Shown here: piece after piece, positions 40,209 to 64,000 of the stretch | Position numbering within the stretch: the stretch's first letter is position 1 | Layout of the letters: each line of letters opens with the position of its first letter | From: Candidatus Woesebacteria bacterium | Lineage (GTDB): Bacteria > Patescibacteriota > Microgenomatia > UBA8517 | DNA: 64,000 nucleotides | Assembly (NCBI GenBank): GCA_016700095.1 | Contig: CP065002.1 | Location: 1,124,145 to 1,188,144, forward strand | Direction: 5' to 3' | The notes under the pieces: generated by a model | Told to the model about the DNA's origin: nothing | Databases searched by the model: none | The model's input: only the letters and a program-made list of their open reading frames with translations | Program-made: the position numbers and the translations under genes

Positions 40209-40290
40209 ATAGTAATTATACATTTTTTAATCTGCTTGGCATAACAAGTGTGGCATTGAATGGAATATTTGTACAAGATATACTTAAACA

Positions 40291-41379: not shown

Positions 41380-41443
41380 CAGAGCTATATGTTATTTCAC
41401 ACACCTAACCAAGATAATATTTTCTAAACAATTATGGCGGCAA

Positions 41444-43464: not shown

Positions 43465-43557
43465 CGCTAGATTATAAACATATACAAAAAGCAAAAATAC
43501 CGTGGTGATATCGTATACTATCAACAAGTGCAGTTTGCTTATTTGAATACATAAGTA

Positions 43558-46720: not shown

Positions 46721-47106
46721 GATCTCTACTATAACAGATTAGGTAATTAAGACATGTTATTAATTAATGCACCTAAACATTCCCAATCGGAAACGAGAAG
46801 TTGATTTCACACACACCAGTAAATAATTTCTTGAATGTCTAATGGTGACTAAAAAGTCTATAGATTTCTAGAAAGTTAGTTTATTTGCTGCATGCGAATT
46901 AAGCACTAAAGGTACGTATTTTTCTACAAAGTTTGTTAAAGTGGTATACATCTTAGTGTTTAGAAATTTTCCAAAATTAATTTTTAAAAACATACTGCAT
47001 GTTTACATAATGATAGAAAGTCACACATTAATAATTAAAGATTGAATTATTAAGTTGTATTTTTCGCACATATCCTATTAATTAAAAAAATATCTCAATA
47101 ACAGTT

Positions 47107-48483: not shown

Positions 48484-48800
48484 CTTTAGAATTAATATTT
48501 GACTCCCTAAGTCGTTTAATTAAACCGATATGTTTATTCGATGCGTACCTTACAGCGAGAATTGATAAATTTCTAATTTATTATCTAACCGTTCCCCAAC
48601 TCCCATTTCTTGCTTATTATTTACCGGCGTACTTCAAAATTGCGTTTTATGGTGTTTTTCTGTTTATCTTATCTGGATTATTAAAAATAACTCACAGTGA
48701 AAGTGAGGCTTATTCTTTACTCTTCTATGTTTTATTTTTCGTATTATTCTTCTCCATCGTACTTATCTTTTTTGGGTTTTTCGTCCTGCTTTTTACTTAG
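48480..48800 (+). CDS. Hypothetical small membrane protein.
   Basis: Hydrophobic 106-aa ORF overlapping the cca stop by 4 nt. AT-rich, so it could be spurious. Confidence 0.4.
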   Translation: MTLELIFDSLSRLIKPICLFDAYLTARIDKFLIYYLTVPQLPFLAYYLPAYFKIAFYGVFLFILSGLLKITHSESEAYSLLFYVLFFVLFFSIVLIFFGFFVLLFT

Positions 48801-49345
48801 TATTTCTCACACATCTCCCATAATCCAAGAAGATTTTCCCGAGCCGTTTTTTGCGCATGCAGGAACTCGGTTTGGTGATAAACATCGGGTGGATAACTCG
48901 TTGCATACGCATAACCTTGATCAACGATGTGCAAGTTTACAAAAATATTTTCTACATAAACATATCTCAACAACCTTCCATACCTATCTGTATCTGATAT
49001 GTCTTTTTCTAATCTCACCTTTCGTCCTTCAACCAACTTTCTGTTGAATTCCTTTGCTTCTTTCCCGAAGCACTCGGTTTTACTTTGCGGATCATTCGTT
49101 TCCGGTGTATCTATACCTATATATCTTACCTTCTCTCCGGTTTCCAATTCTATTGTGTCTCCATCAATTACGCGGGTTACTAGAGCTTCTTGTGTTTGAG
49201 CATTCAATACATCTTGAGATACATTAATTTGGTCAATATCAGTAGTAAGAAGCATGTCGTCTTCAAATAATTCAGATGTATTTATTCCAAATACACTTGC
49301 AAGAATAAACAAAACGACAACAAATAATAATCTTCTTTTCACCAA
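48797..49345 (-). CDS. Secreted thermonuclease (staphylococcal nuclease/SNase-like).
   Basis: Signal peptide. VTRVIDGDTIELETGEKVRYIGIDTPET matches the SNase active-site region. Confidence 0.85.
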   Translation of the reverse strand: MVKRRLLFVVVLFILASVFGINTSELFEDDMLLTTDIDQINVSQDVLNAQTQEALVTRVIDGDTIELETGEKVRYIGIDTPETNDPQSKTECFGKEAKEFNRKLVEGRKVRLEKDISDTDRYGRLLRYVYVENIFVNLHIVDQGYAYATSYPPDVYHQTEFLHAQKTARENLLGLWEMCEKY

Positions 49346-49378
49346 TTAAACATAACAAGATGTTATGATTATTGCAAC

Positions 49379-49810
49379 ATGGATCACATAGCAATAATGA
49401 AACCACAATGGCACTTAATTCCCAAAATATTGGGTGGAGAGAAAACCGTCGAAAGCAGGTGGTACACAACACGACGAAACCCCTGGGACAAAGTAAATAT
49501 CGGTGATACGTTATATTTCAAGAATTCTTCAAGTCCAATCGAGGTTTTGGCCGAAGTAACCGATGTTGTGCAGTTTGTCGTAAAAACAAACGCACATGCG
49601 ATGCGGATAATGAAACAATATGCCAAAAAGGACTTGGGAATTAGCACAATACCAGACGAGGTGAAAATATATATAACAAATAAAAGATATGCAATATTTA
49701 TAAGCTTTTCAAACGTAAAAAAAGTTGAAGCGTTCAACATCGACAAAACAGGCTTTGGTGCTATGTCAGCGTGGATTTGTATAAAAGATATTAGAAAAAT
49801 TATTTCTTAG
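49379..49810 (+). CDS. ASCH domain protein.
   Basis: MKPQWHLIPKILGGEKTVESRW N-terminal ASCH pattern. Confidence 0.7.
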   Translation: MDHIAIMKPQWHLIPKILGGEKTVESRWYTTRRNPWDKVNIGDTLYFKNSSSPIEVLAEVTDVVQFVVKTNAHAMRIMKQYAKKDLGISTIPDEVKIYITNKRYAIFISFSNVKKVEAFNIDKTGFGAMSAWICIKDIRKIIS

Positions 49811-50684
49811 TTTTTTTGTATTTTTCGATTATGTTGTTAAATACTATAAGTAGTGGAACGGCAATAAATGGCGAAGAATATGTTCCCAATACTGTACCGA
49901 TCAAAAGTGCAACAGCAAACCACTTAATCGTAATTCCTCCGAGAAGCAATAACGATGAAAGCATAAAAATAATTGTCAGTGAATTGTTCAATGAACGCAC
50001 CATTGTTTCCGTCAATGCTATGTTGGCAATTTCTTCCAACTCTCCGCCGTTGTTTCTTTTCACTTCCCTTATTCTGTCAAAGACGACTATAGTGTCATGA
50101 ACCGAAAAAGAGAGAGTCGTTAAAAGCGCAGTTACAAAAAGAAAATCAACCTCGGCTCCAAAATATTTTCCTAGAACAGAAAAGGCGCCAATCAATATAA
50201 AGCTATCATGAAACATGGCAAGTATCGCGCTCAATCCAAACTTGATACTTTTGAATTGATACGCAACCCAAAGCAAAATAACAATTGCGGCAAACAAAGC
50301 TGCATAAGCCGTCTTTTTAATGAGTTCAGGTCCGATCGACGGCCCAACGGTTTCAAATCTTTGCTCACTTGATTCACCTTTAAAAATATTTTCTTTAAAT
50401 ATTTTATCAACTTTAATTTTTTGGTCTTGAGATATTGCTTTGAGTCGAAACAAATAAGTGTTATCACCTGTTTGTTGAATTGAATTAACCTCGACATCGT
50501 TTATGGCAAATTCGTTAATAGCATCTTCGCTTGATATTTCACCTTCATATTTATACTCAATTAATGTTCCACCCGTAAAATCTAAACCCAGTTTTAGTTT
50601 CCACGAAACAAGAGCAAATATACAAAACACGATTACACCCAAAGAAAGTGATAAATAAACGTATTTGTATTTTAGCCAATTCAT
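49800..50684 (-). CDS. secF: Protein-export membrane protein SecF.
   Basis: Six TM helices with SecF conservation, immediately downstream of secD. Confidence 0.9.
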   Translation of the reverse strand: MNWLKYKYVYLSLSLGVIVFCIFALVSWKLKLGLDFTGGTLIEYKYEGEISSEDAINEFAINDVEVNSIQQTGDNTYLFRLKAISQDQKIKVDKIFKENIFKGESSEQRFETVGPSIGPELIKKTAYAALFAAIVILLWVAYQFKSIKFGLSAILAMFHDSFILIGAFSVLGKYFGAEVDFLFVTALLTTLSFSVHDTIVVFDRIREVKRNNGGELEEIANIALTETMVRSLNNSLTIIFMLSSLLLLGGITIKWFAVALLIGTVLGTYSSPFIAVPLLIVFNNIIEKYKKTKK

Positions 50685-50685
50685 A

Positions 50686-51996
50686 TTATTTTTCTTTAAT
50701 AAATACTCTTAATAAATTGCGAGTAACAACTATTCCCGTGAATAAACTGATAGCAATACCAAGTGCCAGAGTAATTGCAAAACCTCTTACTGGTCCTGAG
50801 GTATGCAAAAACGACCAATCTAAAGGATTTGCCAAAATAAATGCGGTAACCAGTGTGGCTACATTCGCGTCACGGATTGAATCCCATGCTCTTCCAAAGG
50901 ATATTTCCATTGCATCAAGATAAGAATGATTATCTTTTTCTTCCTTGAAACGTTCAAAGATTAAAATATTACTATCGACAGCCATCCCAACCGACAATAA
51001 AAATCCGGCAATTCCGGGCAAAGTAAGTACAACAGGAATAAGTTTGTAAAGCGCTAGCGTGATTACACCAAAGACAATCAAACCAACATCGGCAATTAAC
51101 CCAAATTTTTTATACACTAAAACCATAAATACTAAAACCGCACCCAAACCGACCAAGCCTGCCATTACACTTTTTTCTACCGACTCTGCGCCTAAAGTTG
51201 CACCTACTGTGCGCTCTTCTACTAATTTAATTGGTACCGGAAGTGCTCCTGCATTCAGTTGTATGGTTAAATTCTTGGCACTTTCAAGTGTAAACTCTCC
51301 ATCAATTACGGCACTTCCATTGGTTATATGTGCGGACACAACCGGTGCAGAAACCACTTCATTATCAAGAATCATTGCAAGTCTTTTACCGACATTTCTT
51401 GCTGTTATGTCTGAAAACTTTTTGGCGCCATCTTCCGTGAACTCCAGCGCTACAACCGGTTTGGCGTCAACATTATCATTTGTAACATAAGAACTTTTTA
51501 GATCTGCTCCTGTCAAATCCGTTGGCACCAAACTCGGCTCATCACCTTCAACCACTTCAACGAATGAAAGTTGTGCAGTTTGCCCAATTAAATCAATAGC
51601 TTCGGTTGTGTTACTGACACCTGGTAATTCGACAATTATTCTATCTTTTCCTTCAAATGTTGAACTCTGTACGTTGGGTTCGGATATCCCAAAGAAATTT
51701 ACTCTACTTTCAATAACAGATTTCAAAGAAGTTAAAGCAGTAGATTTTTTATCCTCAGAGAGATTACTCGTATCCGCCTCAAACACGAGATGACTTCCAC
51801 CTGCCAAATCAAGCCCTAAAGCTAAGTCGAAGTTTTTTTGTAAGTTTATGTTATTTAAGGAGATATTTATATCATGTCTTGTGACAGTACGGTCAATCGG
51901 ACCGATATTTACACGCATCTCTCTTGGGAGACTGATATAGCACGCAATAAGTGATATTACAAAAATAATTATGACTTTTTTTAGTGGAGTAAACAT
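50686..51996 (-). CDS. secD: Protein-export membrane protein SecD.
   Basis: N-terminal TM helix, periplasmic domain, C-terminal six-TM bundle (GLDLAGG). Confidence 0.92.
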   Translation of the reverse strand: MFTPLKKVIIIFVISLIACYISLPREMRVNIGPIDRTVTRHDINISLNNINLQKNFDLALGLDLAGGSHLVFEADTSNLSEDKKSTALTSLKSVIESRVNFFGISEPNVQSSTFEGKDRIIVELPGVSNTTEAIDLIGQTAQLSFVEVVEGDEPSLVPTDLTGADLKSSYVTNDNVDAKPVVALEFTEDGAKKFSDITARNVGKRLAMILDNEVVSAPVVSAHITNGSAVIDGEFTLESAKNLTIQLNAGALPVPIKLVEERTVGATLGAESVEKSVMAGLVGLGAVLVFMVLVYKKFGLIADVGLIVFGVITLALYKLIPVVLTLPGIAGFLLSVGMAVDSNILIFERFKEEKDNHSYLDAMEISFGRAWDSIRDANVATLVTAFILANPLDWSFLHTSGPVRGFAITLALGIAISLFTGIVVTRNLLRVFIKEK

Positions 51997-51998
51997 GG

Positions 51999-52583
51999 TT
52001 AACCAATAAGATCTTCTTCATCTCCTATTATCATTACACGACTTTCCGCTAATATCCCAAGAAGAAATGGATCACGGCGCTTTTTTCTAAAAGTAAATTC
52101 GTCTCTGCTCATAACAGTATAGTTAATTTCAAATCCTCTCGTCGATTCTTCTTTGCGTATCAAGGCAGCAATTTCAGGTAAAACTACATTTCCAACCACA
52201 AGAATATCAACTTCATCTTCCCTTTTTCTTTTCTTACGTCGAACAAATTTTCCGGAGAACATTACAAAGGATAAATTTCCCACTTTGTTTTTATTTTCAA
52301 TAATGTCTTTGCCGATTCCCTTTGATTTGGCGACAATTGATAAAAGATCACCGAAGTAAGGATAGTCTTTTCTAACCCAATAATACAATCTGTTGCCACG
52401 ATTTTCATTTTTAATAAGGCCAATATCTTCCAATCTGTCAAGTTCACGTCGGACAGCATTTATCTCTTCACCCGTCTCTCGTGTTATCCCACGTACATGA
52501 TATATTTCCGTTACATCAGACAAAAAAAGCTCTATGAGTTTGACCCTAACCCGTGAAGTTATAATGTCGTTTAAATCAGCCAT
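51999..52583 (-). CDS. Winged-helix DNA-binding protein with an uncharacterised C-terminal domain.
   Basis: N-terminal wHTH-like region (VRVKLIELFLSD...TGEEINAVRRELDRLEDIGLI). C-terminal function unknown. Confidence 0.5.
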   Translation of the reverse strand: MADLNDIITSRVRVKLIELFLSDVTEIYHVRGITRETGEEINAVRRELDRLEDIGLIKNENRGNRLYYWVRKDYPYFGDLLSIVAKSKGIGKDIIENKNKVGNLSFVMFSGKFVRRKKRKREDEVDILVVGNVVLPEIAALIRKEESTRGFEINYTVMSRDEFTFRKKRRDPFLLGILAESRVMIIGDEEDLIG

Positions 52584-52621
52584 TTAATTGGGGCAGGCGT
52601 ACAAGAAATTCCGATAAACAT

Positions 52622-53860
52622 TTAATACTCAACGTCGTTTGTGCTCGGAATTCCTTCGATCCAAATTTCGCCTCGTACAAATGAAATTTCTTTGCCATCC
52701 TCGTTGTAAAATTTAGTTCTTCCTCGTGTTGATTCTTTCTCCCATGTAGCCTTTATTGCATCTCCATTTTGGAATACAATTGCCTCACCAGTCCCGACGG
52801 TTTTGTAAAACATATGTTTCTCTGTATCAACTGGACCTAACTCTTCCACGTACTGAATAACTACGTTTTTTGCCGTAACCTGCTCTCCGCTCGAGAGATC
52901 TTTCACTTCAATACCACCATTAATACGCTTATATGAATTGGATGCCTTGTCATACGTCCAACTAACTCCATATTGCTTATAATCAGCCCAAAATTCAAAA
53001 GAGATATCTGAGGCTTTGGGAGAAGCAAGCGGTGATTCGTCAACGAAAGACCAAGCTTCGTAGTTGTCAGACCATTCATTTCCTTCATCGTCCTTAAAGG
53101 AAAAACCTCTATCTTTGGCTTGGTCAAATATTGCATCTGTTGTGGAAACCATTGTATGTTCTGTGGCTATTGGTTTACCCAATCTCTCTGGATCTCTGAA
53201 AAGAACAGGGAATCCTGTGTCATAGGTGGTATCAAAATCATTTCCACGCGCCTTACGCCAATCAAGATCGACAAGCATCTCAATTGCTCTTACGCGTGGA
53301 TCAACTTGTCCTTTGTATTTCACTCCACCGGGACAATTCCCACATATGTTATTCGCTCCTCCTACATGAACAAATATCGGGTAATCTCCATATTCTGCTG
53401 CCCAATTGACGAAATGTACTCTAGCCGACCTGATCGGAGCTACTCGGACATCTTCGGCACTGGCACCACAGTAATAAATCGCCAGATGTCTGGTGACTCC
53501 ACCTTCCGCCACAGCTTCATAAACAATATCTGCTCTATGGAGACCTTCGACAGGACGCGAGTCTTCATGATTTTCTATAACTGCGGCGATTGGCCGTCTT
53601 GTTTCCCAAATACTCTTTTCAGCCTCTGTATACATTTTCCCGTTCACGGGGCATTCGGCTGTTTTGGGTTTACTTAAATCAATCTTCGACCTGGTGTCTC
53701 CGAGATCCCCGGAATTGTAAATAACTTCAGGATCACCGTTTAAGTATGAAAAAACCGCCCACGAACTCCCGGTGGACAAAAGATACAAGCCAAAAAAACT
53801 TATAAAAATCATGAAGGCCTTTGATGAAGTTAATTTAGAAAATTTTGATGTATGTTCCAT
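52622..53860 (-). CDS. DUF3048 (YerB-like) secreted/lipoprotein-type protein.
   Basis: RPIAAVIENHEDSRPVEGLHRADIVYEAVAEGGVTRHLAIYY...PIRSARVHFVNWA matches the DUF3048 N-domain pattern. Confidence 0.75.
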   Translation of the reverse strand: MEHTSKFSKLTSSKAFMIFISFFGLYLLSTGSSWAVFSYLNGDPEVIYNSGDLGDTRSKIDLSKPKTAECPVNGKMYTEAEKSIWETRRPIAAVIENHEDSRPVEGLHRADIVYEAVAEGGVTRHLAIYYCGASAEDVRVAPIRSARVHFVNWAAEYGDYPIFVHVGGANNICGNCPGGVKYKGQVDPRVRAIEMLVDLDWRKARGNDFDTTYDTGFPVLFRDPERLGKPIATEHTMVSTTDAIFDQAKDRGFSFKDDEGNEWSDNYEAWSFVDESPLASPKASDISFEFWADYKQYGVSWTYDKASNSYKRINGGIEVKDLSSGEQVTAKNVVIQYVEELGPVDTEKHMFYKTVGTGEAIVFQNGDAIKATWEKESTRGRTKFYNEDGKEISFVRGEIWIEGIPSTNDVEY

Positions 53861-53861
53861 G

Positions 53862-54329
53862 TTATTTATTAATTGCTAATTTTAACGCTTTTTTCTCTTC
53901 ATTTGAAAGACTGTATTGGGTTTTTCCTTTTTCTATGTCTTTCAAGTATACTCTTGTCCTCTCTCTCGTATGCAATCCAGTTAGTATTATGCCCGTATTT
54001 TCTTTATCAAGCAATGCCAAAGAAAAACTGTGATCTCCGCCAAGTTCTTTGAACGGATTGAACCTGACAACTCCCACCTTTTGTACAGCAAATAGTGATT
54101 GCTGAGTTAAGTTATTTAAATCGTGTGCAACTCTAGCTATTTTTTCGTCGTTATTTTTTTCTTTCTCGAAAATTTTATGCAATACCTTTGTAATGTCGGA
54201 AACATTTACTCCTTTTGACAAAAAACTAATAGACGCATAAGTCTTATACAAAAAATAACTGGCTACGAATAGCCATATCGTCAACAACGAGAAATATACT
54301 AATGTAAAGAGAACAATATTTTGATCCAA
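53862..54329 (-). CDS. DUF4446 family protein.
   Basis: N-terminal TM helix. VGVVRFNPFKELGGDHSFSLALLDKENTGIILTGLHTRERTRVYLK matches the DUF4446 core. Confidence 0.75.
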   Translation of the reverse strand: MDQNIVLFTLVYFSLLTIWLFVASYFLYKTYASISFLSKGVNVSDITKVLHKIFEKEKNNDEKIARVAHDLNNLTQQSLFAVQKVGVVRFNPFKELGGDHSFSLALLDKENTGIILTGLHTRERTRVYLKDIEKGKTQYSLSNEEKKALKLAINK

Positions 54330-54468
54330 CTTATATTTATATGATTAGTAATTTATTCTGTCGAAAATAAATCCCCTGCAATCAGTTAAATCCATCAAGG
54401 GTGAGCAAATAATTACCTCAAACATTTTTACATCTTGAAGAATTAGTGTCAAGGAGATATAAATCGAA

Positions 54469-54756
54469 TTGCAAATGACTCATCGCAGGACAAGAAAACA
54501 AAAGAGTTTGGCCAAACATCAATTTACTGTAAGTTGGACCGGAAACGATAGTTCCGACAAGAGCAGTGGAGCTGTCAAGGGGGAAAAGAAAATAAATACC
54601 ACGCACACCTCAAGCCTAATTAAAACTAATAAAAATGCCGTCTCTTTGGCAAAAGCCAAGAAACTTGGTTTAATCAAGAAAGATATAATTAAGACATTAT
54701 TTGTAGCTAGCCTCATTTTGAGTTTGGAGCTAGTGATATACTTGGTTTTGCGATAA
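54469..54756 (+). CDS. Hypothetical small basic protein with a C-terminal TM helix.
   Basis: ORF with an AAGGAG 12 nt upstream of a TTG start. Uncertain. Confidence 0.3.
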   Translation: MQMTHRRTRKQKSLAKHQFTVSWTGNDSSDKSSGAVKGEKKINTTHTSSLIKTNKNAVSLAKAKKLGLIKKDIIKTLFVASLILSLELVIYLVLR

Positions 54757-54804
54757 AGCAGACCGAGTTTAATTATTTTAAACTCTGAGGGGAGGTGATT
54801 AATT

Positions 54805-54954
54805 GTGGACGGAAATAAAAAAATGTATTGTGTGAAATGCCGCGAGAAACGTGAAGGTAAGGATTTAGAACCTTACACCATGAAAAACGGTAAAAAAGCT
54901 ACAAAAGCAACTTGTGAAGTTTGTGGCACAAAAATGTTTAAGATCGGCGGCTAA
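54805..54954 (+). CDS. Small zinc-ribbon protein (DUF5679-like), 49 aa, not in the ORF track.
   Basis: GGGGAGGTGA SD 6 nt before a GTG. MYCVKCREKRE...CEVCGTKMFKIGG has two CxxC pairs. Followed by hairpins at 54970..54990. Confidence 0.7.
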   Translation: MDGNKKMYCVKCREKREGKDLEPYTMKNGKKATKATCEVCGTKMFKIGG

Positions 54955-55023
54955 CTGTCGGTCTTTTTTCTTGGGTTTTTACCCAAAAAGCGAAAGGGAA
55001 TTTCCGTTTATACGGGTTCCCTT

Positions 55024-55644
55024 TTGTTATTTAAACGCATGAATTACGAACAAGTATTTAAAATATTTAGAAGCAAGTATCAACATGTTCCGCTTGAAGT
55101 ATTTGTTGGCGATCCGTATAAGATTCTGGTTTCTACATTATTGTCCTCTCGCACCAAAGATGAAACGACGCTCAAAGCTGCAAATAGATTATTTCTTAAA
55201 GCAAACACTGTAACTAAGCTTAATCTACTAACAGAACATGAAATAGCCAGGTTGATTTATCCGGTGGGCTTTTACAAAACAAAAGCACGACATCTTAAAA
55301 TGCTATCTCAAATTCTTATCGACAAGTATAACGGTAGCATCCCGAAAACCAGAAACCACCTAATGACTTTACCTGGCGTTGGAAGAAAAACGGCAAACTT
55401 GGTTTTAAATCGAGCATTTAGCATTCCCGCAATAGCGGTTGACACGCATGTACATAAAATTGCCAATTTACTAGGCTGGGTAAAAACAACTACCCCCGAA
55501 AAGACGGAAATAGAATTACTTAAAATCCTTCCCCAACAATTCTGGAGCCAAACCAACAAATTGTTTGTTTCAATCGGGAGACAATTCACAACGAGAAAAA
55601 AATTAACACAATTCCTGGTAGAAAACAAACTACGCACCCCGTAA
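55024..55644 (+). CDS. nth: Endonuclease III-like HhH-GPD DNA glycosylase (no C-terminal Fe-S cysteine cluster).
   Basis: HhH-GPD motif LPGVGRKTANLVL with a catalytic Lys/Asp arrangement. Confidence 0.85.
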   Translation: MLFKRMNYEQVFKIFRSKYQHVPLEVFVGDPYKILVSTLLSSRTKDETTLKAANRLFLKANTVTKLNLLTEHEIARLIYPVGFYKTKARHLKMLSQILIDKYNGSIPKTRNHLMTLPGVGRKTANLVLNRAFSIPAIAVDTHVHKIANLLGWVKTTTPEKTEIELLKILPQQFWSQTNKLFVSIGRQFTTRKKLTQFLVENKLRTP

Positions 55645-55709
55645 GAGCAAATATCGACTATCGCTATCGAAACATTGAAAAGCCCGTGACACTGACGACA
55701 GTAAAAAAG

Positions 55710-56315
55710 TCATGTATACCTTAAGTATTTTGTAATTAACTTTTTTAATGCATTTTCGGATATCAAATCGATTGACAAATTTACGTCTTCGTTCCACTTC
55801 AGCCAAAAATCAACATCGGTTTTCTTTATATACTTTGCCAATCCGTTCTTGTTAACAAATTCTTGCAAACTTCTTTCTCCTACTTTTTCTATTTCGAAAA
55901 GGTATTTTTCGGACCTACCAAATTGTTTTGATAATTTAATTTCAAAATCCTTAGAGTAATAAATTTTATTTTTATGTTGAATTATTCTGGGCGCTATACC
56001 GGTTTCACACAAATTGGAAAGTATAAGAAATAATGAATAGATCTCGTTCACCCCGCCTCGAATCGGGCAAGATATTTCTTGTAACTTGAACGACTTCTTA
56101 TTTTCCCATTCTCCCACTTTCTGCATCAACTCCGCTTCACCATTTGTAATCCTTATTCTTGTTTCAACGTTTTTTATATCAGGATTCCAGAAAGAAATGG
56201 CAATTCTTTTTTTTATAGAGGGTGGTCCATATTGTTCTTTTAATTGCTTACTTAATTTAGTGTAGAGTTTCTTATCAATATGTCCCAATACTTCGTGTTC
56301 GATCACTATTTTCAT
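55710..56315 (-). CDS. CYTH-like (triphosphate tunnel metalloenzyme) domain protein, tentative.
   Basis: MKIVIEHEVLG N-terminus resembles the CYTH EIERKFL start. The ATG lies 2 nt after the upstream stop, suggesting translational coupling. Confidence 0.5.
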   Translation of the reverse strand: MKIVIEHEVLGHIDKKLYTKLSKQLKEQYGPPSIKKRIAISFWNPDIKNVETRIRITNGEAELMQKVGEWENKKSFKLQEISCPIRGGVNEIYSLFLILSNLCETGIAPRIIQHKNKIYYSKDFEIKLSKQFGRSEKYLFEIEKVGERSLQEFVNKNGLAKYIKKTDVDFWLKWNEDVNLSIDLISENALKKLITKYLRYT

Positions 56316-56317
56316 AA

Positions 56318-56956
56318 TTAGAAGGCGGTGATAGCTACAGCAAAGGAATTCTGTGCATATATACACCCCCACACATATTCTCCACCCGTTAGTAGTTTTT
56401 TGTGACCCAAACTATTCTCCCACATCGAAACAGTTTCTTGAGGACTTTCGCCTCCTGCTGCTAAAAATTCTGCTACGGTTGAATAATTACTAAAAATACT
56501 TTGCAGGTCGGGGCGTTTCTCGGTCATATTACTGAAACCCTCGTGTCCATCTAATTTCCCAAGTTCCAGTAGTTCATTCAAACGAATCGATGCAATCGTA
56601 CACAATTCATCCTTCTGGTTTAACGGATTTACGCCCATTTCTTGACGCCTCTTATTGACAGCATCCCAAAGATCAGGACCCCCCCAGTTTGAATTTCTAA
56701 TATAAGTGATTTCTTTTGTTTCTTCTTTGAAATTATTCGTAATTTCAACCGGTGTTGGAGTAACTTCAATATTCGTAAAGGCGTTAAGAATAGAAGAAAC
56801 CTGTTGAGCATAAAAGTTATCAGACTTCTCTTGTCCATAATTTATTCCCTGGTAAAACCCCAAGGTATAGGTGGCACCGATTAAAGCAATAGCAAGAACC
56901 AGAGTAAAAACTCCGGAAAATACTTTCAGCACATTTTGAAATACAATTTTATTCAT
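56318..56956 (-). CDS. CAP/SCP/PR1-like domain secreted protein (YkwD-like).
   Basis: N-terminal TM/signal sequence. GHKKLLTGGEYVWGCIYA is a CAP signature. Confidence 0.8.
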   Translation of the reverse strand: MNKIVFQNVLKVFSGVFTLVLAIALIGATYTLGFYQGINYGQEKSDNFYAQQVSSILNAFTNIEVTPTPVEITNNFKEETKEITYIRNSNWGGPDLWDAVNKRRQEMGVNPLNQKDELCTIASIRLNELLELGKLDGHEGFSNMTEKRPDLQSIFSNYSTVAEFLAAGGESPQETVSMWENSLGHKKLLTGGEYVWGCIYAQNSFAVAITAF

Positions 56957-57396
56957 TGTTTGGTATCAATTATTATCGTAACTGGACCGTCAAGTGTTGT
57001 GTTAATTTGCATATATTCACCAAACTTGCCAGTCTTGACGTTTATACCATATCCAACTAGTTTGTCAACAAAATACCGATATATTTTTTCGGCATGTGAT
57101 GAATCGGCTGCATCAACAAACGACGGTCGATTACCCTTTTTAGTATTGGCAAAAAGCGTAAATTGAGAAACTACCAAAACCGACTCGTTCGCATCTATTA
57201 AAGACAGATTCATTTTACCCTCACTATCTGAAATTATTCTTAACTTCACAATCTTTTCCGCAAGGATATTAGCATCAATCACTGTGTCGTTTTGAGTAAT
57301 ACCCACAAGTATAAAAAACCCTTTATTAATTTCACCAACAACTTCATCGTCGACACTAACCGATGCTTCAAGTACTCTTTGTACGACAATTTTCAT
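56953..57396 (-). CDS. dtd: D-aminoacyl-tRNA deacylase.
   Basis: MKIVVQRV..., SQFTL motif (VVSQFTLFANTKKGNRPSF), 147 aa. Confidence 0.92.
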   Translation of the reverse strand: MKIVVQRVLEASVSVDDEVVGEINKGFFILVGITQNDTVIDANILAEKIVKLRIISDSEGKMNLSLIDANESVLVVSQFTLFANTKKGNRPSFVDAADSSHAEKIYRYFVDKLVGYGINVKTGKFGEYMQINTTLDGPVTIIIDTKQ

Positions 57397-57414
57397 TGAT
57401 AATTATTATAGAAA

Positions 57415-57660
57415 TTACAAACTAAAAACGCTAAAACCTATTTGCTTAAACAGTAATGCATATATATATCCCCAAGAAAGCGCGGTCAATGCCCACAATC
57501 CGATAAGTATCAACCAATCAAAGCGTTTCTTGCCTTGAATGCGTATCTTATATTCTCGATAGACGATACTCATCGCAGCAGCAGTCGAAGCCAGATAACC
57601 CGACAAAAGTGTGACTCTGACTAAGTTCGAAAACAATGACACCAGTGTGTTTAACGTCAT
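57415..57660 (-). CDS. Small two-TM membrane protein.
   Basis: 81-aa hydrophobic ORF immediately upstream of dtd. Confidence 0.45.
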   Translation of the reverse strand: MTLNTLVSLFSNLVRVTLLSGYLASTAAAMSIVYREYKIRIQGKKRFDWLILIGLWALTALSWGYIYALLFKQIGFSVFSL

Positions 57661-57828
57661 AACCCTATTTGTATCAAAATATGTACCTTAGGTGAAGACG
57701 TGTTATTAATACCTCATCGCAAAGGATCTTAGTATTTGATAATCAGTTTCTCAATTTGTGAAGGTGATATATAAAGCCGTGCACCTATGCCTAACGCTTT
57801 GGCAACGTCGACGTTTTTTTGATCATCA

Positions 57829-58590
57829 TCAAAATACGCAATCTCGTGCATACTTTTGATCGAAGATATCTATTAATTCCGATTCTTTGCCGATTATATT
57901 AATACCAATATTTTTTACTTCATCTTTATTACCAAAAAATAAATTTTTCAACTCTGAATCATTTCTCTTTTTAAATCGGGAAACAACTTCATCTTTTGTC
58001 AACTTCAATTTGCAGTAAAAAATGAATGCGACGTTATACGATTTTGTTCTAAACGCTCCGATTAATTCTATCTTCTCAATATCGCTTTCCACCACACCCG
58101 TTTCTTCGAGCACTTCATTTTGAGCTGATTTGAACAAATCAACATCTTTTCTATGTTGCGGTTTGTTAAATACTCCACCGATATAACTATACTTTCTACT
58201 TGCTGCAAAAAAATCTGATTTTTCACCAAATACAAACATGGCATTACTTGTCTCGATAAAAATTGAAGAATAAGTCGCCATGGGCAAGTATTCATCTCCC
58301 TTTCTTATTAATTCATCGGTAAAATCTCCAATCGAAGATCTGATACTAAACGGAACTGTCGAAAATTCTAGTTTACATTTATTGTCGTGAATGACATACC
58401 CATCCAATCTACAAACTGGCTGATCCCACATTTTTTTACCGTTTTTCAGCGCCTCTTCAAGTTTCAATTGCCAGATCTGCTGTGCTTTATTTTCAATATT
58501 TTTATCTATCTTTCGCGACGATACACTGCTATACGTACAAGAAACACTGTCTTTTGGAAACACTCCTTGAAATAAAATCTTACCGTCCAT
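57829..58590 (-). CDS. Nudix-domain protein with an N-terminal extension. The C-terminus is probably truncated by a frameshift (see findings).
   Basis: AQNEVLEETGV Nudix-box core. The ORF ends in TGATGATGA, and the +1 frame continues with a HAD-motif-like peptide. Confidence 0.6.
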   Translation of the reverse strand: MDGKILFQGVFPKDSVSCTYSSVSSRKIDKNIENKAQQIWQLKLEEALKNGKKMWDQPVCRLDGYVIHDNKCKLEFSTVPFSIRSSIGDFTDELIRKGDEYLPMATYSSIFIETSNAMFVFGEKSDFFAASRKYSYIGGVFNKPQHRKDVDLFKSAQNEVLEETGVVESDIEKIELIGAFRTKSYNVAFIFYCKLKLTKDEVVSRFKKRNDSELKNLFFGNKDEVKNIGINIIGKESELIDIFDQKYARDCVF

Positions 58591-58770
58591 AGCTTTTATG
58601 GAATTTTACCATCTAATTATTATTATCAAACGTGCTAAGTATTTGACCAACGTACATCATTAGAAATGTACAATTATGGTTTTATGAAATTATTATTTCC
58701 TGTTTCAATACCGTTTTGACATTACCGCAAATTCCAACCAATTATTTATTTATAATCAATTGACTTTTGT

Positions 58771-59290
58771 CTACACATCCTCCTTTGGTCTATACTGCAG
58801 CGCCTCTGCTATATGATTGGTAGATACTTCCTTTGTTTCTTCTAAATCCGCTATTGTTCGGGAAATTTTTATTACCTTAAAATAACTTCGAGCTGACAAA
58901 TTCATGGAAGATATTGCACTTCTTAGTATTGTTCGACAGTCAGCATTTAGCAGACAAAATTCTTTCACGGTATTGGAACTCATTTCGCCATTTGATACAA
59001 TTTTTAATCCCTTAAACCTCTTTAGTTGAGCATCCCGTGCTTTTTGTATTCGCCGTTGTATAGATTTCGAGTTTTCGTTTTCATTGGTTTGTTTTCCAAT
59101 TAGTTTGTATGTGTCAACCGATGGAACCCACACATGAATATCGATTCTGTCAAGAAGAGGTCCGGAAATTCGTTTAGCATAGCGTGAGATCTGTCCCGGT
59201 AAACACTTACATGGCCGTTTGGGGTCTTTGTAATATCCACACGGGTGGGGGTGTACATTGTTTTCAACAAGGACACCATCTAATACATCA
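58771..59290 (-). pseudogene. comM: 3' fragment of comM/yifB (Mg-chelatase-like AAA+ ATPase C-terminal domain), separated from its 5' part by the inserted element.
   Basis: HPCGYYKDPKRPCKCLPGQISRYAKRISGPLLDRIDIHVWVP...LSARSYFKVIKISRTIADLEETKEVSTNHIAEALQYR is collinear with the ComM C-terminus (NPCPCGYY...QRYxxRISGPLLDRIDL...LSARAYxRILKVARTIADL...HLAEALQYR). Confidence 0.75.
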
Positions 59291-60921
59291 TCAACAATAA
59301 ACTCTATATGAACCTCACCCTTGTCTCCTACAACAACCCTCTTTATGAATTGCTGCAAAACCTTCTTTTTCTTAGCCAAATCCCCATTATTGAAGTGTTC
59401 GTCAAACTTCATAAGGAACTTCCTCTTTTTATCAAGTAAAGCATTGTTTTCCTCTATAGAGGCAAGGCTACGCTCTAATTTTGTCAGTTCTTCTTTGGCT
59501 GTCTTTAGTGCCATCTCAACTTCTTTTGAGCGTTCATAGTAAGTTTGAGGAGTAACAAAGCCCTCCTGAAATGCACTGTCCCACCTATCTTTTGCAAAAT
59601 TGAGCTTAAAGATTTCCTTTTTCTTGGCTGCAACCTGATGCTTCAGGCTCTCAATAAACTTATCAATCGATAACCTCTCAAATGCTTCTTTAACTTCAGC
59701 ATTTTGTGCCAATTCATGAATCCTCTGTATTATCACTCCTTCCAGTTTAGCAGCTGACATTTTGTAAGTGTTGCATGGACAGACTTTGACACCGCTAATA
59801 TGATTGCATGGACAACCATAGTGTATTCGTGGTTTGGCATTAGGTGACCTCTTGAGAGTTGAGGGAGTAGGGTTTTGTCGCTTGTAGTGTAGTCTGTGCC
59901 CACAGTGGCAATATGCCAGAGGTATTAATAATCCCTCACTCGCAATAGCCCTGCCTCTGAAAATATACCGCTGTCTCATCCGTTCCTGGGCTACCTTGAA
60001 TGTATCTTCATCAATCAGTTTTGGGATTTTCTCGTTAGGCACTAATATCCATTCTTCTGGTGAGGTTTGCTTTCGCTTACCTCTGAAAACAGGTCTATGG
60101 TTATGCCTTACTATGCCTATATAAAAAGGGTTTGCCAAGATTTTCCTAACGCTGGGAGGTCTCCACAACCCTCCCATAGGAGCTGGAATTTTTTCCTTGT
60201 TCAAGACAGTGCAAATTTTGCGGTAAGAATAATCCTCCCTGACAAAGTGTTTGAATATTCTCTTTACCACCTCAGACTGCGCCTCATTCACCAAGATGTC
60301 AAATTCTACTGTTGGATGTATCCGCTTATAATCTTTGTTTAAACCATAAGGAACATTGTGAGGGTCACCCCTTAAAGCTCTCTTCCTCGCACCTTGCCTT
60401 ACTTTTCTCCTTATACCTTTAACATCTATGTCAGCTTTTATATCGACTATCGCCTCATGGATAACCTCTGAATCATCCTGCTGGGGGTCATAGAGTCTTG
60501 GGTCAACAATTTCCCTGGGTTGGTTATAGGAATAAAATTGGATAAAGTTCTTTTTTAATGTTTGCCTAACAAGTAAAGCTGTATCCCTATCCCTGCTAAA
60601 CCTATCTGCGTCATACACAACTAAAACATCAAATTCCCCTTTGTTGGCAGCGTCCATCATTGCCATCAACCCCTCTCGGCTTTCGATGCGGTGACCTTTC
60701 TGTACATCCTTAAAAACCAAATCAACAAACTTCCAGTGGTGGTTGTCTATCGCTTGCAAACACCTTTTTTTCTGTTCATCGAGGCTTCCCTTTGTAGGGT
60801 CTGCCTGGTCATCTGTTGATACTCGGATATAGTAGGCTGCCCTTACTTCTACTTCCTCAATTTCAACCTTCGGTGTAACTGAATTTAGACCTAATTTGTT
60901 AAGCAGTTTTGTGTTTTCCAT
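58771..60921 (-). CDS. Large serine recombinase (about 555 aa of recombinase proper) whose ORF reads through the attachment junction into the comM 3' fragment.
   Basis: Resolvase catalytic domain YYIRVSTDDQ...RFSRD, recombinase domain, zinc-ribbon cysteines (CHCGH...CPCNHISGVKVCPC), coiled coil. There is no stop codon before the comM-derived 160 aa. Confidence 0.9.
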   Translation of the reverse strand: MENTKLLNKLGLNSVTPKVEIEEVEVRAAYYIRVSTDDQADPTKGSLDEQKKRCLQAIDNHHWKFVDLVFKDVQKGHRIESREGLMAMMDAANKGEFDVLVVYDADRFSRDRDTALLVRQTLKKNFIQFYSYNQPREIVDPRLYDPQQDDSEVIHEAIVDIKADIDVKGIRRKVRQGARKRALRGDPHNVPYGLNKDYKRIHPTVEFDILVNEAQSEVVKRIFKHFVREDYSYRKICTVLNKEKIPAPMGGLWRPPSVRKILANPFYIGIVRHNHRPVFRGKRKQTSPEEWILVPNEKIPKLIDEDTFKVAQERMRQRYIFRGRAIASEGLLIPLAYCHCGHRLHYKRQNPTPSTLKRSPNAKPRIHYGCPCNHISGVKVCPCNTYKMSAAKLEGVIIQRIHELAQNAEVKEAFERLSIDKFIESLKHQVAAKKKEIFKLNFAKDRWDSAFQEGFVTPQTYYERSKEVEMALKTAKEELTKLERSLASIEENNALLDKKRKFLMKFDEHFNNGDLAKKKKVLQQFIKRVVVGDKGEVHIEFIVDDVLDGVLVENNVHPHPCGYYKDPKRPCKCLPGQISRYAKRISGPLLDRIDIHVWVPSVDTYKLIGKQTNENENSKSIQRRIQKARDAQLKRFKGLKIVSNGEMSSNTVKEFCLLNADCRTILRSAISSMNLSARSYFKVIKISRTIADLEETKEVSTNHIAEALQYRPKEDV

Positions 60922-60924
60922 AAG

Positions 60925-61806
60925 TTACCAAGTTATTACTGTCCTTTGACCTGTAATCTCATCATGGGCAATAGTGCCAATCATCGAACCAACTGATGTT
61001 AGGTCAATTTTCTGCAAAGAGTTTTCCCATATCTCTTTTAACTTTTTCCCTTCTTGGGTCTCATTAATGAATTTCTGGGCTTCCCATTCGCCAAAGGGTT
61101 CTTTCAAAACCCCATCCAAACCCCTTCCTATAAAAGATTCAAAGCTAAGGCATGACAGGCCAACTAAGTGCATTATGTCAACCTGTGTTAGTGGAGATGC
61201 CTTCGATATTATTGGTGACAGGTGTCTAAGCCACCAGTCCCTTGACACAGTGTTTATTTGCTCTGGGGTTAATAGTTCTTTCTTTACATTCAGTGGTCTG
61301 ATTGAGAAGATTGTGACAGCCAACGCCAAGTACCTTATGTGCTTTGGACTCAAGTTAGAAATTGAGTCTATTGCTTGAGGTGACACAAGAGATATTAGAC
61401 TATCCTCATTCGCAATTAGCCTCTCAGATATAACCCTCGCTAATAATTTATGCCTTTCTTCATTCGATGTCTTTGATGCTGCATATAATGCATCCTGGAA
61501 GGTTGCAGAAAAAGCTGGGTCTCTAAACGCTGACTTAACTAATGCGGCAGTAACTGGGTTGTCTTTGCTTGATTCCTCAATTTTCTTAATTTTCTCTGCA
61601 ATATCTTCCAGATAATGTAGTGTGTTTTCCTCAGCTTTCTTTTGGACTTCCTTTTGGTGAGGTCTCCATTTATCCTTTAACCACTTAATCGCTGGACTTA
61701 GTGCAGCCTTGACCACCATTGAACCTGCCTCAGAAGCCCCACTTTTAGCGATTTCCTCTACACCTTTTGTCAATACATCTGTTACTGGTTTTGGGTCTAT
61801 TGCCAT
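60925..61806 (-). CDS. Hypothetical 293-aa cargo protein of the element (no family recognised).
   Basis: Clean ORF between the HTH gene (shared ATGA overlap) and the recombinase (3-nt gap). Predominantly helical composition. Confidence 0.7.
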   Translation of the reverse strand: MAIDPKPVTDVLTKGVEEIAKSGASEAGSMVVKAALSPAIKWLKDKWRPHQKEVQKKAEENTLHYLEDIAEKIKKIEESSKDNPVTAALVKSAFRDPAFSATFQDALYAASKTSNEERHKLLARVISERLIANEDSLISLVSPQAIDSISNLSPKHIRYLALAVTIFSIRPLNVKKELLTPEQINTVSRDWWLRHLSPIISKASPLTQVDIMHLVGLSCLSFESFIGRGLDGVLKEPFGEWEAQKFINETQEGKKLKEIWENSLQKIDLTSVGSMIGTIAHDEITGQRTVITW

Positions 61807-62075
61807 TACTTACCACCTATCCTTTCCTTAATTTCAGTGATACTAAGCCTTTTAGACTGATACCTTTTAACTTCAGATATTATCTTTAGGCTCTTGTCCT
61901 CATCAAATAACTGGTAACCTCCAGGAGTTTTTTCCACCACCTCAAGCAAGCCTTCTTTTGCGTAGTAACGGATAGTAGAAGGGAGCACCCCTGCCTTTAA
62001 TGCTAATTGTCCAACTTTAACCTTTTTCATAATTTTTTTCCGCAAAATTTTTTCCTTACCAGTCCCAAATGTCAT
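61806..62075 (-). CDS. MerR-family HTH DNA-binding protein (excisionase/regulator-like).
   Basis: VKVGQLALKAGVLPSTIRYYAKEGLL is a MerR-type HTH. Confidence 0.75.
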   Translation of the reverse strand: MTFGTGKEKILRKKIMKKVKVGQLALKAGVLPSTIRYYAKEGLLEVVEKTPGGYQLFDEDKSLKIISEVKRYQSKRLSITEIKERIGGK

Positions 62076-62152
62076 TTTGGTTCTGGACTACCACCCATAA
62101 AAGAGTCTCATAAATTTAATGGTTGGTTGGAAACCCATACCCCCCTTGGCTA

Positions 62153-62350
62153 TTATGGATTTGTCCTACCCCCATCTTTGTTCTCAACTGCTAAATCTTT
62201 ATCCAGGCGTTCCTTTTCTCGCATAGCCCTAATGTTCTGAGCTGCTATCGTAAAGATGCGGTTATAGGCAGTCGTCAAAGCCCTATCAATCTCCTCTGGA
62301 GTGCCTACTTGCTTAAATACTATGTTAGGTGGAACTACTTTTCTTCCCAT
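62153..62350 (-). CDS. Hypothetical 65-aa protein.
   Basis: Lies 4 nt downstream of the integrase gene. No family recognised. Confidence 0.4.
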   Translation of the reverse strand: MGRKVVPPNIVFKQVGTPEEIDRALTTAYNRIFTIAAQNIRAMREKERLDKDLAVENKDGGRTNP

Positions 62351-62354
62351 AATT

Positions 62355-63311
62355 TCAACTTCCTGTATTTATGATTATCGGAACTTCAGGTGGGCTTTCG
62401 CTAAAAGCAACCCCATCAAAAGCGTTGTAATACCTTGGCAAATCCGCTTGCTTCTTGATGCTATCGTTGTACACTTGCAACATTTCTAAGCTGCGGTGTC
62501 TGGTATATTGTGCAACCTCAAGCAAGTCTCCTTTATATGTCTTAATGAGCTTGGTGGTGAAGTAGTGCCTAAACCCATGTGTGGACTTCTCGATATCTAA
62601 ACCCTTGAGAACAGTAGTCACAATTTCCCTGATTGCTCTTGTGGTAAGTCTCTGGTTATTGCGGTTGTTGCTTATAGAAGTAAACAATGCACCAGAGGCT
62701 TTTCTGTTTGATTTTATGTAATCCAAAAGCACTCTTACTGATTCAGGGTGTAGGTCAATCGGTTCTTTGTCATCCCTGCCTTTTCCCTGGATTAGTGCTG
62801 TCATATTTGATAAATCCAAGTCCTCTACATCAAGCCTCACAATTTCAACTTGCCTCAAGCCCTGCAATGCCAGTAGGCTCATTATCGCTTTGACTCGTGT
62901 GTTCTGTGGAGTAGGGTCAAGAGACCTGAGGTAACTTACAAGCCTTGCCATTTCAATCTCGCTAACCCCTGTCCTTTTATGCTTTTTCTCTTGGGTGAAT
63001 GTCTTTATGTTTTGGGTTATATCAACTGGTAATACTCCTTGTCGATTCAACTCCTTGAGGAATATCCTGGCAGCAGCAAGATATTTATTCTTTGTTGAGG
63101 TGCTTAAATCAGTCCTTCCTATCAAATATCTCTTAAATTCTAAGAATGTGTTATGAGTAAATCCATTACCCTGGAGAAAATCTAAAAATAGTCCAATGCG
63201 ATACTTGTAGTCTATGCGTGTACTTTCGGCTACATCAAGAAGGTCAAATATCTTCTGTGCGCTCAAATGTGGGTTATTTATCGTCAAATCTAAATCGTTG
63301 TTCATGGTCAT
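62355..63311 (-). CDS. Tyrosine recombinase/phage-type integrase.
   Basis: N-terminal SAM-like domain. Catalytic R...HGFRHYF...RHRSLEMLQVY (R-H-R-Y) signature. Confidence 0.88.
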   Translation of the reverse strand: MTMNNDLDLTINNPHLSAQKIFDLLDVAESTRIDYKYRIGLFLDFLQGNGFTHNTFLEFKRYLIGRTDLSTSTKNKYLAAARIFLKELNRQGVLPVDITQNIKTFTQEKKHKRTGVSEIEMARLVSYLRSLDPTPQNTRVKAIMSLLALQGLRQVEIVRLDVEDLDLSNMTALIQGKGRDDKEPIDLHPESVRVLLDYIKSNRKASGALFTSISNNRNNQRLTTRAIREIVTTVLKGLDIEKSTHGFRHYFTTKLIKTYKGDLLEVAQYTRHRSLEMLQVYNDSIKKQADLPRYYNAFDGVAFSESPPEVPIIINTGS

Positions 63312-63358
63312 TAAAGTTCGTGACTCACAGTCTCATCCTTAAAGTATCACTTTAAGGT

Positions 63359-63943
63359 TTAAGAGTCAAGTGTTTTGTTTTTTCTCACATAAAAAACCAT
63401 TCCAGGTAAGGCATCTATGAAACTGGCAAACCGTTTGCCACCCTGTTTCTTGATATGAGGCAGTTCGCTCCATATCCTGGCAGCCTCAATCACCTCATAC
63501 TCGGTATAATTATTTGCCAATAGTTCCTTGAATAACCTAACCTCCTTGATAAGGATTCCAATATCTTTGGGCTTTCTGCTTGGGAAAATCTCGTAGTATT
63601 GGTCAAGCAGCTTTGCCTCTTGGTGCATCCGATATCTTTCCTTTTGGGTTCTAAGCAATGCGGTTCTCCTACTTAGAAACTTCTCAAATACCCTTTTTCT
63701 ACTCAAAATGTTTGCTGCACCTTTTTCCTTAATCCATTTAGCTGCCCTGCGTGCCTCTTTGACAGTGTCTATCTCTGGATACTCATCAATCATCTCTTTT
63801 AAGAATTGCTTATCGTCTATGGAGAGTAGAGCCTTTAAGTAATTTATCTTTTCCTCCTTAGTAGAGAAGCCACCAAAAGGAACTTTTGGTACTCCTTTAG
63901 GAGTATCATCCTTTTTATAATCCTTTATATTAGTGTGTGCCAT
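63359..63943 (-). CDS. Hypothetical 194-aa protein in the element.
   Basis: Clean ORF. Basic N-terminus. No family recognised. Confidence 0.6.
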   Translation of the reverse strand: MAHTNIKDYKKDDTPKGVPKVPFGGFSTKEEKINYLKALLSIDDKQFLKEMIDEYPEIDTVKEARRAAKWIKEKGAANILSRKRVFEKFLSRRTALLRTQKERYRMHQEAKLLDQYYEIFPSRKPKDIGILIKEVRLFKELLANNYTEYEVIEAARIWSELPHIKKQGGKRFASFIDALPGMVFYVRKNKTLDS

Positions 63944-64000
63944 TTTGTCTCGACTGGTAGAGTCATTATGTCCTGACTCAGTGGTAGTTGAGCCAATTTG

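Follow-up and report, generated by a model that had tools for sequence, protein, structure and literature searches.

A divergent Vpar_1526/LPO_1073 family gene at the integrase end of a comM-inserted element in Woesebacteria, a candidate for stand-alone defense

A 64,000-nucleotide (nt) stretch of the genome of a Candidatus Woesebacteria bacterium (GenBank assembly GCA_016700095.1, contig CP065002.1, positions 1,124,145 to 1,188,144), referred to here as the window, contains on its minus strand a gene for a protein of 293 amino acids (aa), which lies between the gene for a small MerR-type helix-turn-helix (HTH) protein and that for a large serine recombinase (LSR), the integrase of a mobile element. 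Profile searches identify the 293-aa protein as a divergent member of the Vpar_1526/LPO_1073 family, which is known and uncharacterized, rather than as the product of a categorically new gene. The gene itself is cargo of an element that is inserted in the host gene comM, and lies at the integrase end of that element. The role that we favor for it, tentatively and with somewhat less than even confidence, is single-protein defense or exclusion directed against phages or other mobile DNA, to the benefit of the host of the element. The 293-aa protein would then work alone, without the HTH protein or the integrase; the small MerR-type protein would regulate the gene array, and the integrase would be translated through coupling to the 293-aa open reading frame (ORF). 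The interest of the locus lies in the combination of a candidate defense family that lacks a solved structural analogue, dissemination of this family on cassettes, and an apparent coupling to the integrase in the element of the window.

The 293-aa protein is a divergent member of a known family

A first-pass annotation of this DNA, made from the sequence alone, recognized no family for the 293-aa protein and proposed it as a candidate novel accessory or defense gene. The first part of this has to be corrected. The NCBIfam model NF045477 ("LPO_1073/Vpar_1526 family protein") matched the protein with 158.5 bits (E 2.4e-46), against a curated cutoff of 45 bits, and aligned residues 38-289 to model positions 10-251 of 257. 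A match was also found to phrog_19542 (E 8e-29), a group of unknown function that was matched by 116/116 sampled family members, and the Pfam domain PF28206 'Vpar_1526' was present on every homologue recovered. A Pfam scan of the 293-aa protein itself came back empty, the Pfam copy that was searched being older than PF28206, and its GenBank entry (QQS38889.1) reads 'hypothetical protein'. The gene can therefore not be called novel, though its family is without an assigned function. No homology to a housekeeping family, which the annotation had named as a finding that would count against its proposal, was found for the protein.

To gauge the extent of the family, 1.84 billion cluster representatives were scanned with HMMER (E <= 0.001). 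This yielded 504 clusters at 50% identity, nearly all of which were single-domain, stand-alone proteins of 270-290 aa; the longer members showed no informative domain fusions. Named sources included Bacteroidota, Syntrophaceae/Smithella, Ignavibacteria, Thermodesulfobacteriota and Alphaproteobacteria. Locus tags from both Veillonella parvula and Legionella pneumophila gave the family its name. In the literature it surfaces only in a proteome study of V. parvula cell fractions, where Vpar_1526 was listed as an 'uncharacterized protein' (PMC5491611).

The 293-aa protein shares with this family a profile match over nearly the full length, the same length and single-domain architecture, and the near-invariant residues described below. 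Its nearest companions within the family are three metagenomic proteins at 70-74% identity, together with which it makes up a small subfamily; to the remaining members it is 24-41% identical. Comparison with a 73%-identical homologue gave a proportion of nonsynonymous differences (pN) of 0.143 and of synonymous differences (pS) of 0.80, with synonymous sites saturated, indicating that the gene is under strong purifying selection. What sets it apart is its setting, as no other sampled member lies in an operon with an HTH gene on one side and a serine integrase gene on the other.

Two irregularities among the close relatives were noted. The gene for the 73%-identical homologue (P0002, L015 99-1024) is frameshifted, with the N-terminal 98 aa in one frame and the other 252 aa in another; it is a pseudogene, or else the metagenome contig was misassembled. 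In addition, the 90%-identity cluster that holds QQS38889.1 is represented by an unrelated 44-aa fragment (P0271) that resembles the C-terminus of 6-phosphogluconate dehydrogenase, which appears to be a clustering artifact.

Relatives occur as integron cassettes and in the vicinity of defense genes

The genomic contexts of about 17 independent family loci were inspected besides that of the window, a small sample that has no background control. The first-pass annotation had suggested examining whether the gene neighborhood is conserved next to LSRs, and this was not the case: none of these ~17 contexts had an adjacent serine recombinase, nor did any have an overlapping MerR gene. No MerR gene was found upstream of the two closest homologues (73-74% identity), and behind the closest (74% identity) there was no integrase but a 44-aa ORF and then, in convergent orientation, the gene for a single-stranded DNA-binding protein (SSB). 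Ten upstream neighbors of more distant relatives were also scanned; none was a MerR-type or other small HTH protein, and one was an extracytoplasmic function (ECF) sigma factor, encoded ~480 nt upstream.

Recognized defense or toxin-antitoxin (TA) genes, on the other hand, lay within ~4 kb of the family gene in 7 of the ~17 contexts, a count to be read with the small and uncontrolled sample in mind. Neighbors of this kind, together with hallmarks of mobile elements, were as follows.

L010: PDC-M48B, AbiEi/AbiEii and a Type IIG restriction-modification enzyme
L008: a restriction-endonuclease/NsnA-like protein and PDC-S42
L005: AbiEii/DUF6088, and HATPase with Mrr
L022: a BglI/SfiI-like endonuclease with a methyltransferase, inserted beside a genuine lexA
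L013: a TIR-like protein
L009: ParD
L011: a protein related to models associated with prokaryotic Argonaute (pAgo)
L021: ArdA, PIN and transposases (mobile-element hallmarks)
L020: a tyrosine integrase (mobile-element hallmark)

Several relatives were found to be carried in the manner of gene cassettes. A unit of 887 bp, made up of a 278-aa gene flanked by 37 nt on its upstream side and 13 nt on its downstream side, was 100% identical in four unrelated contexts. The unit starts with GTTAGGGCAC, and the reverse complement, GTGCCCTAAC, follows directly after it. The borders of the 278-aa relatives carry the core-site-like sequence GTTAGGG and its inverse. Past the unit lies an imperfect palindrome of ~125 nt that ends in GTTA/GTTG, the arms of which vary by locus and still pair. 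An attC-like site was located directly downstream of the gene in L003, L004, L008 and L009. The cassette-borne relatives lie at the following positions.

L001: 5964-6850
L003: 51-1058
L004: 107-1114
L008 and L009: 7897-8915

At L001, a divergent tyrosine integrase is encoded just upstream (4704-5774, minus strand), which scored slightly below the cutoff of one integron-integrase model (214.8 vs 220) and below that of another (198 vs 265). On the other side, a group II intron interrupts the attC, 13 nt past the stop codon of the cassette gene. Its reverse transcriptase (6916-8217, minus strand; RVT_1 and GIIM) is oriented opposite to the cassette, and by analogy this intron resembles the attC-targeting group IIC introns. 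A blastn search with the cassette against E. coli genomes returned no match. Taken together, the borders and downstream sites mark the 278-aa subfamily as self-contained integron cassettes.

The comparison with integron cassettes is informative in both directions. The family resembles them in being a self-sufficient single-gene module. The gene in the window, however, has no attC site, is separated by 3 nt from the integrase gene and has 1 nt in common with the HTH gene, and would have moved within a larger serine-integrase element. Integron cassettes are reported to carry phage defense (bioRxiv 10.1101/2024.07.02.601719; PMC12614218); whereas some cassettes do encode such functions, for the Vpar_1526/LPO_1073 family defense is a candidate role.

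The autonomy of the family is well supported by these data, in that its members appear as single-domain proteins that have no conserved partner and are carried on cassettes. For the same reasons, the HTH-293-integrase arrangement is to be regarded as a peculiarity of the element in the window and not as a conserved module.

A predicted all-alpha fold with conserved polar residues

Structure prediction, proposed in the first-pass annotation as a way to examine the 293-aa protein, gave a confident all-alpha model. With a family alignment of 116 sequences as input, AlphaFold2 modeled the protein at a predicted local distance difference test score (pLDDT) of 92.7 and a predicted template modeling score (pTM) of 0.90, with fifteen helices and two short strands. 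A family member of 278 aa (P0005) was modeled at a pLDDT of 95.5 with the same order of helices and strands, a further likeness between the 293-aa protein and its family. Searches of the PDB with both models using Foldseek gave nothing at E <= 0.001; the best template modeling (TM) scores, ~0.2-0.3, were to designed helical repeats. A sequence-profile search of the PDB with the family (HMMER) gave only noise, and a search of BFVD gave one unnamed phage protein of 229 aa at E 0.085. As modeled, the fold is without a detected solved counterpart in the PDB.

The same 116-sequence alignment revealed a set of near-invariant residues, all of which are kept in the 293-aa protein: N61, P97, T113, H119, L122, D210, H213, L214, C219, T270, G273 and G277. 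Of these, N61, T113, H119, D210, H213, C219 and T270, along with the strand, glycine loop and helix around T270-G273-G277, may form a catalytic or metal- or ligand-binding pocket in the helical core. To name any specific biochemical mechanism would be a guess, and one that is unlikely to be right.

Conservation differs at the N-terminus, where the family carries the motif 'DP - hydrophobic - GGAAGK - xVEKAWD - G - KWL'. The 293-aa protein retains the part of it with W42/H50; its Gly/Ala-rich stretch is AKSGASEAGSMVV, which has a 7-residue insertion and lacks GGAAGK. Most members have a Gly/Ala-rich, hydrophobic N-terminal helix that is not seen in the 293-aa protein, and this helix could serve in oligomerization or membrane contact.

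Three assignments to known domains were considered and rejected. A weak local alignment of the family profile, at residues 205-260 of the 293-aa protein, to the HNH nuclease domain of Cas9 (PDB 6o56, E 0.11) pairs D210 and H213 with the catalytic DH. The model, however, is helical at this place and shows no beta-beta-alpha-metal fold, and the alignment is attributed to chance. An HEPN or HD domain was dropped on inspection of the alignment by eye, which showed neither an Rx4-6H nor an HD motif. Abi-alpha (PF14337), considered for its similar-looking N-terminus, could have matched at most 1/116 members at E <= 1.

The gene is carried at the integrase end of an element inserted in comM

The genes around the 293-aa ORF form a minus-strand array, on an element that runs past the end of the window. 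Listed in ascending coordinates, these are as follows.

58771-60921, minus: composite recombinase ORF, 716 aa (ORF list)
58771..59253, minus: 3' remnant of comM/yifB, the in-frame C-terminal ~160 aa of the 716-aa ORF (Pfam, TIGR00368)
59254..60921, minus: LSR (integrase) part of the 716-aa ORF (Pfam, phrog_95)
60925-61806, minus: 293-aa ORF, the subject of this analysis (ORF list, NCBIfam NF045477)
61806-62075, minus: MerR-type HTH protein, 89 aa (ORF list, Pfam)
62153..62350, minus: 65-aa ORF, no family match (ORF list)
62355..63311, minus: tyrosine recombinase, 318 aa (Pfam, PHROG)
63359..63943, minus: 194-aa ORF, no family match, the first visible gene of the array (ORF list)

The C-terminus of the 716-aa ORF is not of recombinase origin. 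Pfam places Mg_chelatase at residues 556-604 and Mg_chelatase_C at residues 616-711, and this part of the ORF matches positions 345-499 of 499 of the TIGR00368 YifB model, so that residues 556-711 correspond to the C-terminal third of ComM/YifB, a Mg-chelatase-like AAA ATPase. The motif HPHPCGYY begins at residue 557, corresponding to nucleotide 59253, and the junction between element and chromosome lies near there. Across this junction, the GC content goes from ~0.41 down to ~0.34-0.37. As the LSR ORF continues, in the same reading frame, as the 3' part of comM and the GC content falls at that point, we conclude that the element is inserted in comM. The array is accordingly the integrase end of an integrative element that extends past the end of the window, and the junction near 59253 marks its attL or attR. 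The genes of the element (window positions 59000-64000) have a GC content of 0.37-0.43, ~0.41, vs 0.366 for the adjacent host region (40000-58700), which is consistent with a foreign origin. The fusion of the LSR ORF to the comM remnant and this difference in GC content bear out the earlier proposal that the 293-aa gene is carried by an element.

In the integrated state, the LSR ORF is not closed by a stop codon of its own; it reads through into ~160 residues of ComM. It follows that crossover takes place at or within the 3' end of the LSR gene, and that the LSR must end in different C-termini in the integrated and excised forms. The in-frame integrase::comM junction also provides a useful marker for defining the attachment site of the element.

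Serine-integrase elements that split host genes in a manner restorable on excision include the A118-like prophage of Listeria (in comK), the skin element of Bacillus (in sigK) and SPbeta (in spsM). The element in the window resembles these in having the integrase gene at its very edge and, with comM/yifB, in splitting a conserved, competence-linked host gene. It differs in that the integrase ORF crosses the junction and goes on, in frame, with ~160 ComM residues; the other end of the element falls outside the window.

The three genes at the center of the first-pass annotation were correctly delimited there, with exact coordinates on the minus strand (HTH gene 61806-62075, 293-aa ORF 60925-61806, LSR start at 60921), and on the evidence of their family matches we regard all three as real genes rather than chance ORFs. 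The annotation had further described an ATGA stop/start overlap between the HTH gene and the 293-aa ORF. Here the sequence reads GGT AAG TAATG GCA instead, in which TAATG joins the stop of the former to the start of the latter with 1 nt in common. The gap of 3 nt between the stop codon of the 293-aa ORF and the ATG of the LSR was confirmed, with only CTT in between (TGG TAA CTT ATG). A GGTGG motif is located 6 nt ahead of the ATG of the 293-aa ORF, whereas no Shine-Dalgarno-like motif was found in the 15 nt ahead of that of the LSR. Translational coupling of the LSR to the 293-aa ORF is a reasonable inference from this difference.

Upstream of the HTH gene, the array consists of the 194-aa ORF, 47 nt, the tyrosine recombinase gene, 4 nt, the 65-aa ORF and 77 nt. 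No terminator-like sites were found on the minus strand from 58,600 to 64,000. The tightly coupled transcription unit of HTH gene, 293-aa gene and LSR gene that had been proposed agrees with the gene order, the packing and the lack of terminator-like sites, and may exist; its extent, however, needs revision, as the array is longer than three genes.

A defense role and its alternatives

The proposal that the gene is accessory or defense cargo holds up in part. The neighbors of its relatives fit it, with defense or TA genes in the 7 of ~17 contexts described above, but none of the PADLOC models matched. As a more specific possibility, and a doubtful one, the family would be an unrecognized single-protein system against phages or mobile DNA, spread across phyla by way of cassettes and integrase-proximal cargo; in the element described here, from a member of the Woesebacteria, which belong to the Candidate Phyla Radiation (CPR), it would have been wired into the integrase operon under a MerR-type regulator, with expression of defense and integrase coupled.

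A number of observations weigh against a defense role. PADLOC-DB v2, with 5027 models, contained no match for the 293-aa protein or for any of the 116 members; the sole PADLOC result for the 293-aa protein was ZorA at E 0.011, which is noise, and no PADLOC family was common to >2/116 members. The PDB held neither a structural nor a sequence analogue that would hint at effector activity, and the N-terminal motif of the 293-aa protein has diverged from the GGAAGK consensus of the family. About half of the sampled contexts contained no recognizable defense gene. Neither the 293-aa protein nor the family consensus gave a tblastn match among 50,697 phage genomes and 72,556 plasmids, and one pattern scan for relatives in IMG/VR contigs found none either. 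(A pattern scan of metagenome contigs from the Joint Genome Institute (JGI) also found no relatives; the patterns for this were poorly chosen, making the absence weak evidence.) Moreover, integron cassettes and islands hold many non-defense genes as well, and the defense role, while plausible, is drawn from the behavior of the family as it appears in sequence data.

If the protein does act in defense or exclusion, it would represent a small system encoded by one gene (~280 aa), the fold of which is apparently new. Such a gene would also count among the few defense candidates on mobile elements of the CPR, the bacteria of which are poor in known defense systems, and its cassette-borne relatives would make the family easy to test. 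If it does not, the record is still corrected: the gene has a family, its relatives do not share the adjacency to an integrase, and as an excision factor it is an unpromising candidate.

The alternative that survives best, possible in our judgment though rather unlikely, is that the gene is cargo with another purpose, such as regulation, stress tolerance, small-molecule metabolism or maintenance of the element, and that defense genes are found nearby only because both share variable regions and arrays. The lack of a match to any defense model agrees with this, as do five contexts (L002-L004, L012 and L023) in which the neighbors were only housekeeping genes or genes of unknown function. The presence of Vpar_1526 in cell fractions of V. 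parvula (PMC5491611) fits such a role too, and the conserved His, Asp, His and Cys residues could equally suit an ordinary enzyme. The distribution of the family, however, is patchy, horizontally transferred and cassette-borne across phyla, and the defense and TA genes within a few kb of its members form a pattern typical of conflict systems and not of metabolic genes.

Another reading makes the HTH and 293-aa genes a pair that resembles a TA or abortive-infection system. Here, the MerR-type HTH protein would be an antitoxin and autorepressor and the 293-aa protein a toxic effector, and the pair would stabilize the element in the manner of AbiEi/AbiEii. The 1-nt stop/start overlap is typical of TA pairs, and the HTH protein is weakly similar to the HTH of AbiEi_4 (E 0.023) and to the small HTH protein 'mad1' of the MADS system (E 1.3e-8). 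The likeness to AbiE extends to the layout, with an overlapping small HTH gene followed by a gene for a ~300-aa protein on a mobile element, and true AbiE systems, as well as ParD, do lie beside relatives of the gene. We nevertheless consider this reading improbable, as relatives do not share the pairing. The upstream MerR gene is missing from the two closest homologues, and the tested upstream neighbors of the more distant relatives included no HTH protein other than the one ECF sigma factor. The 293-aa protein has neither a nucleotidyltransferase fold nor a match to AbiEii, nor any similarity to a known toxin fold. Lastly, the cassette-borne relatives are single genes, and proteins of the family can therefore not be constitutively toxic.

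The position of the gene beside the integrase gene had been taken in the first-pass annotation to point to, among other roles, a recombination directionality factor (RDF), which in this case would switch the adjoining LSR to excision and might be a scavenged protein that moonlights in this role. The 293-aa protein is comparable in size to the RDFs gp3 of phiC31 and gp47 of Bxb1. As with these and SprB of SPbeta, the element that encodes it also carries a large serine integrase, and its gene directly adjoins the integrase gene, to which it is probably translationally coupled. Known RDFs have no common motif or fold and can be 25-30 kDa in size (PMC12286644), and homology is for that reason unable to decide against the idea; some RDFs are moonlighting proteins (PMC12286644; bioRxiv 10.1101/2024.08.21.608926). 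The positional argument itself is weak, however. Known RDFs show no consistent synteny with integrases (PMC12286644), and adjacency therefore carries little weight. In addition, serine recombinases did not co-occur with the family in any of the other sampled contexts, where the closest homologue precedes the 44-aa ORF and the SSB gene, and family members also occur as free-standing integron cassettes. We judge a role as RDF, with a putative binding to the integrase, to be very improbable.

Least probable of all is a membrane-located superinfection-exclusion protein that stops DNA entry of related elements: most family members do have a Gly/Ala-rich hydrophobic N-terminal helix (GxxxGxxxG in 27/116, 15-residue hydropathy of >=1.6 in 56/116) and Vpar_1526 was recovered from envelope fractions of V. 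parvula (PMC5491611), but the hydrophobic stretch is just ~12-15 residues long and followed by charged residues. In the 293-aa protein, the N-terminus is amphipathic and free of transmembrane-like segments, its maximum 19-residue hydropathy being 1.34; the model shows the remainder as a soluble-looking helical domain, and no signal peptide or lipobox was found.

Other genes of the array

The LSR was identified by its Pfam domains Resolvase (residues 28-186, E 4e-22) and Recombinase (residues 214-318, E 5e-24), and by a match to phrog_95, integrase (E 9e-81). Downstream of these domains, its translation reads into a Cys-rich stretch, CHCGH...CPCNHISGVKVCPC, completing the architecture of a large serine recombinase. 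The CcrB and XisF models of NCBIfam matched it below their cutoffs. A pattern scan of IMG/VR for relatives of the LSR found none, and in phage genomes only integrases at 24% identity were found.

The gene upstream of the 293-aa ORF had been annotated as encoding a MerR-type HTH protein, and this identity stands, with matches to Pfam MerR (E 3.6e-10) and MerR_1 (E 3.5e-9) at residues 20-84. MerR-family models of NCBIfam align to it only by their N-terminal ~65 positions, with scores far under their cutoffs. As the matches cover only this part of full-length MerR-family models, the protein is classed as a MerR-type winged helix-turn-helix that consists of the DNA-binding domain only, without an effector or dimerization domain.

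Neither the 65-aa ORF nor the 194-aa ORF had a match in Pfam, PHROG, PADLOC or NCBIfam, and no repeats, tRNAs or Rfam families were found near the locus. The remaining gene of the array encodes a tyrosine recombinase, with matches to Pfam Phage_integrase (E 4e-21) and phrog_1, integrase (E 1.8e-31), and to Xer and integron-integrase models under their cutoffs. It is co-directional with the LSR gene in the same array, within 2.5 kb of it; the two recombinases could be the pair of a single element or belong to nested or tandem elements.

A final observation concerns the start of the HTH gene. Its ORF has two candidate start codons, ATG at 62075 and ATG at 62030, and the helix-turn-helix begins right past the second. 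A promoter-like pair of hexamers, ATGACA and AAAAAT separated by 17 nt, is found at 62075-62047. The actual HTH protein may be one of 74 aa that starts at 62030, with a promoter inside the annotated 5' end of the gene.

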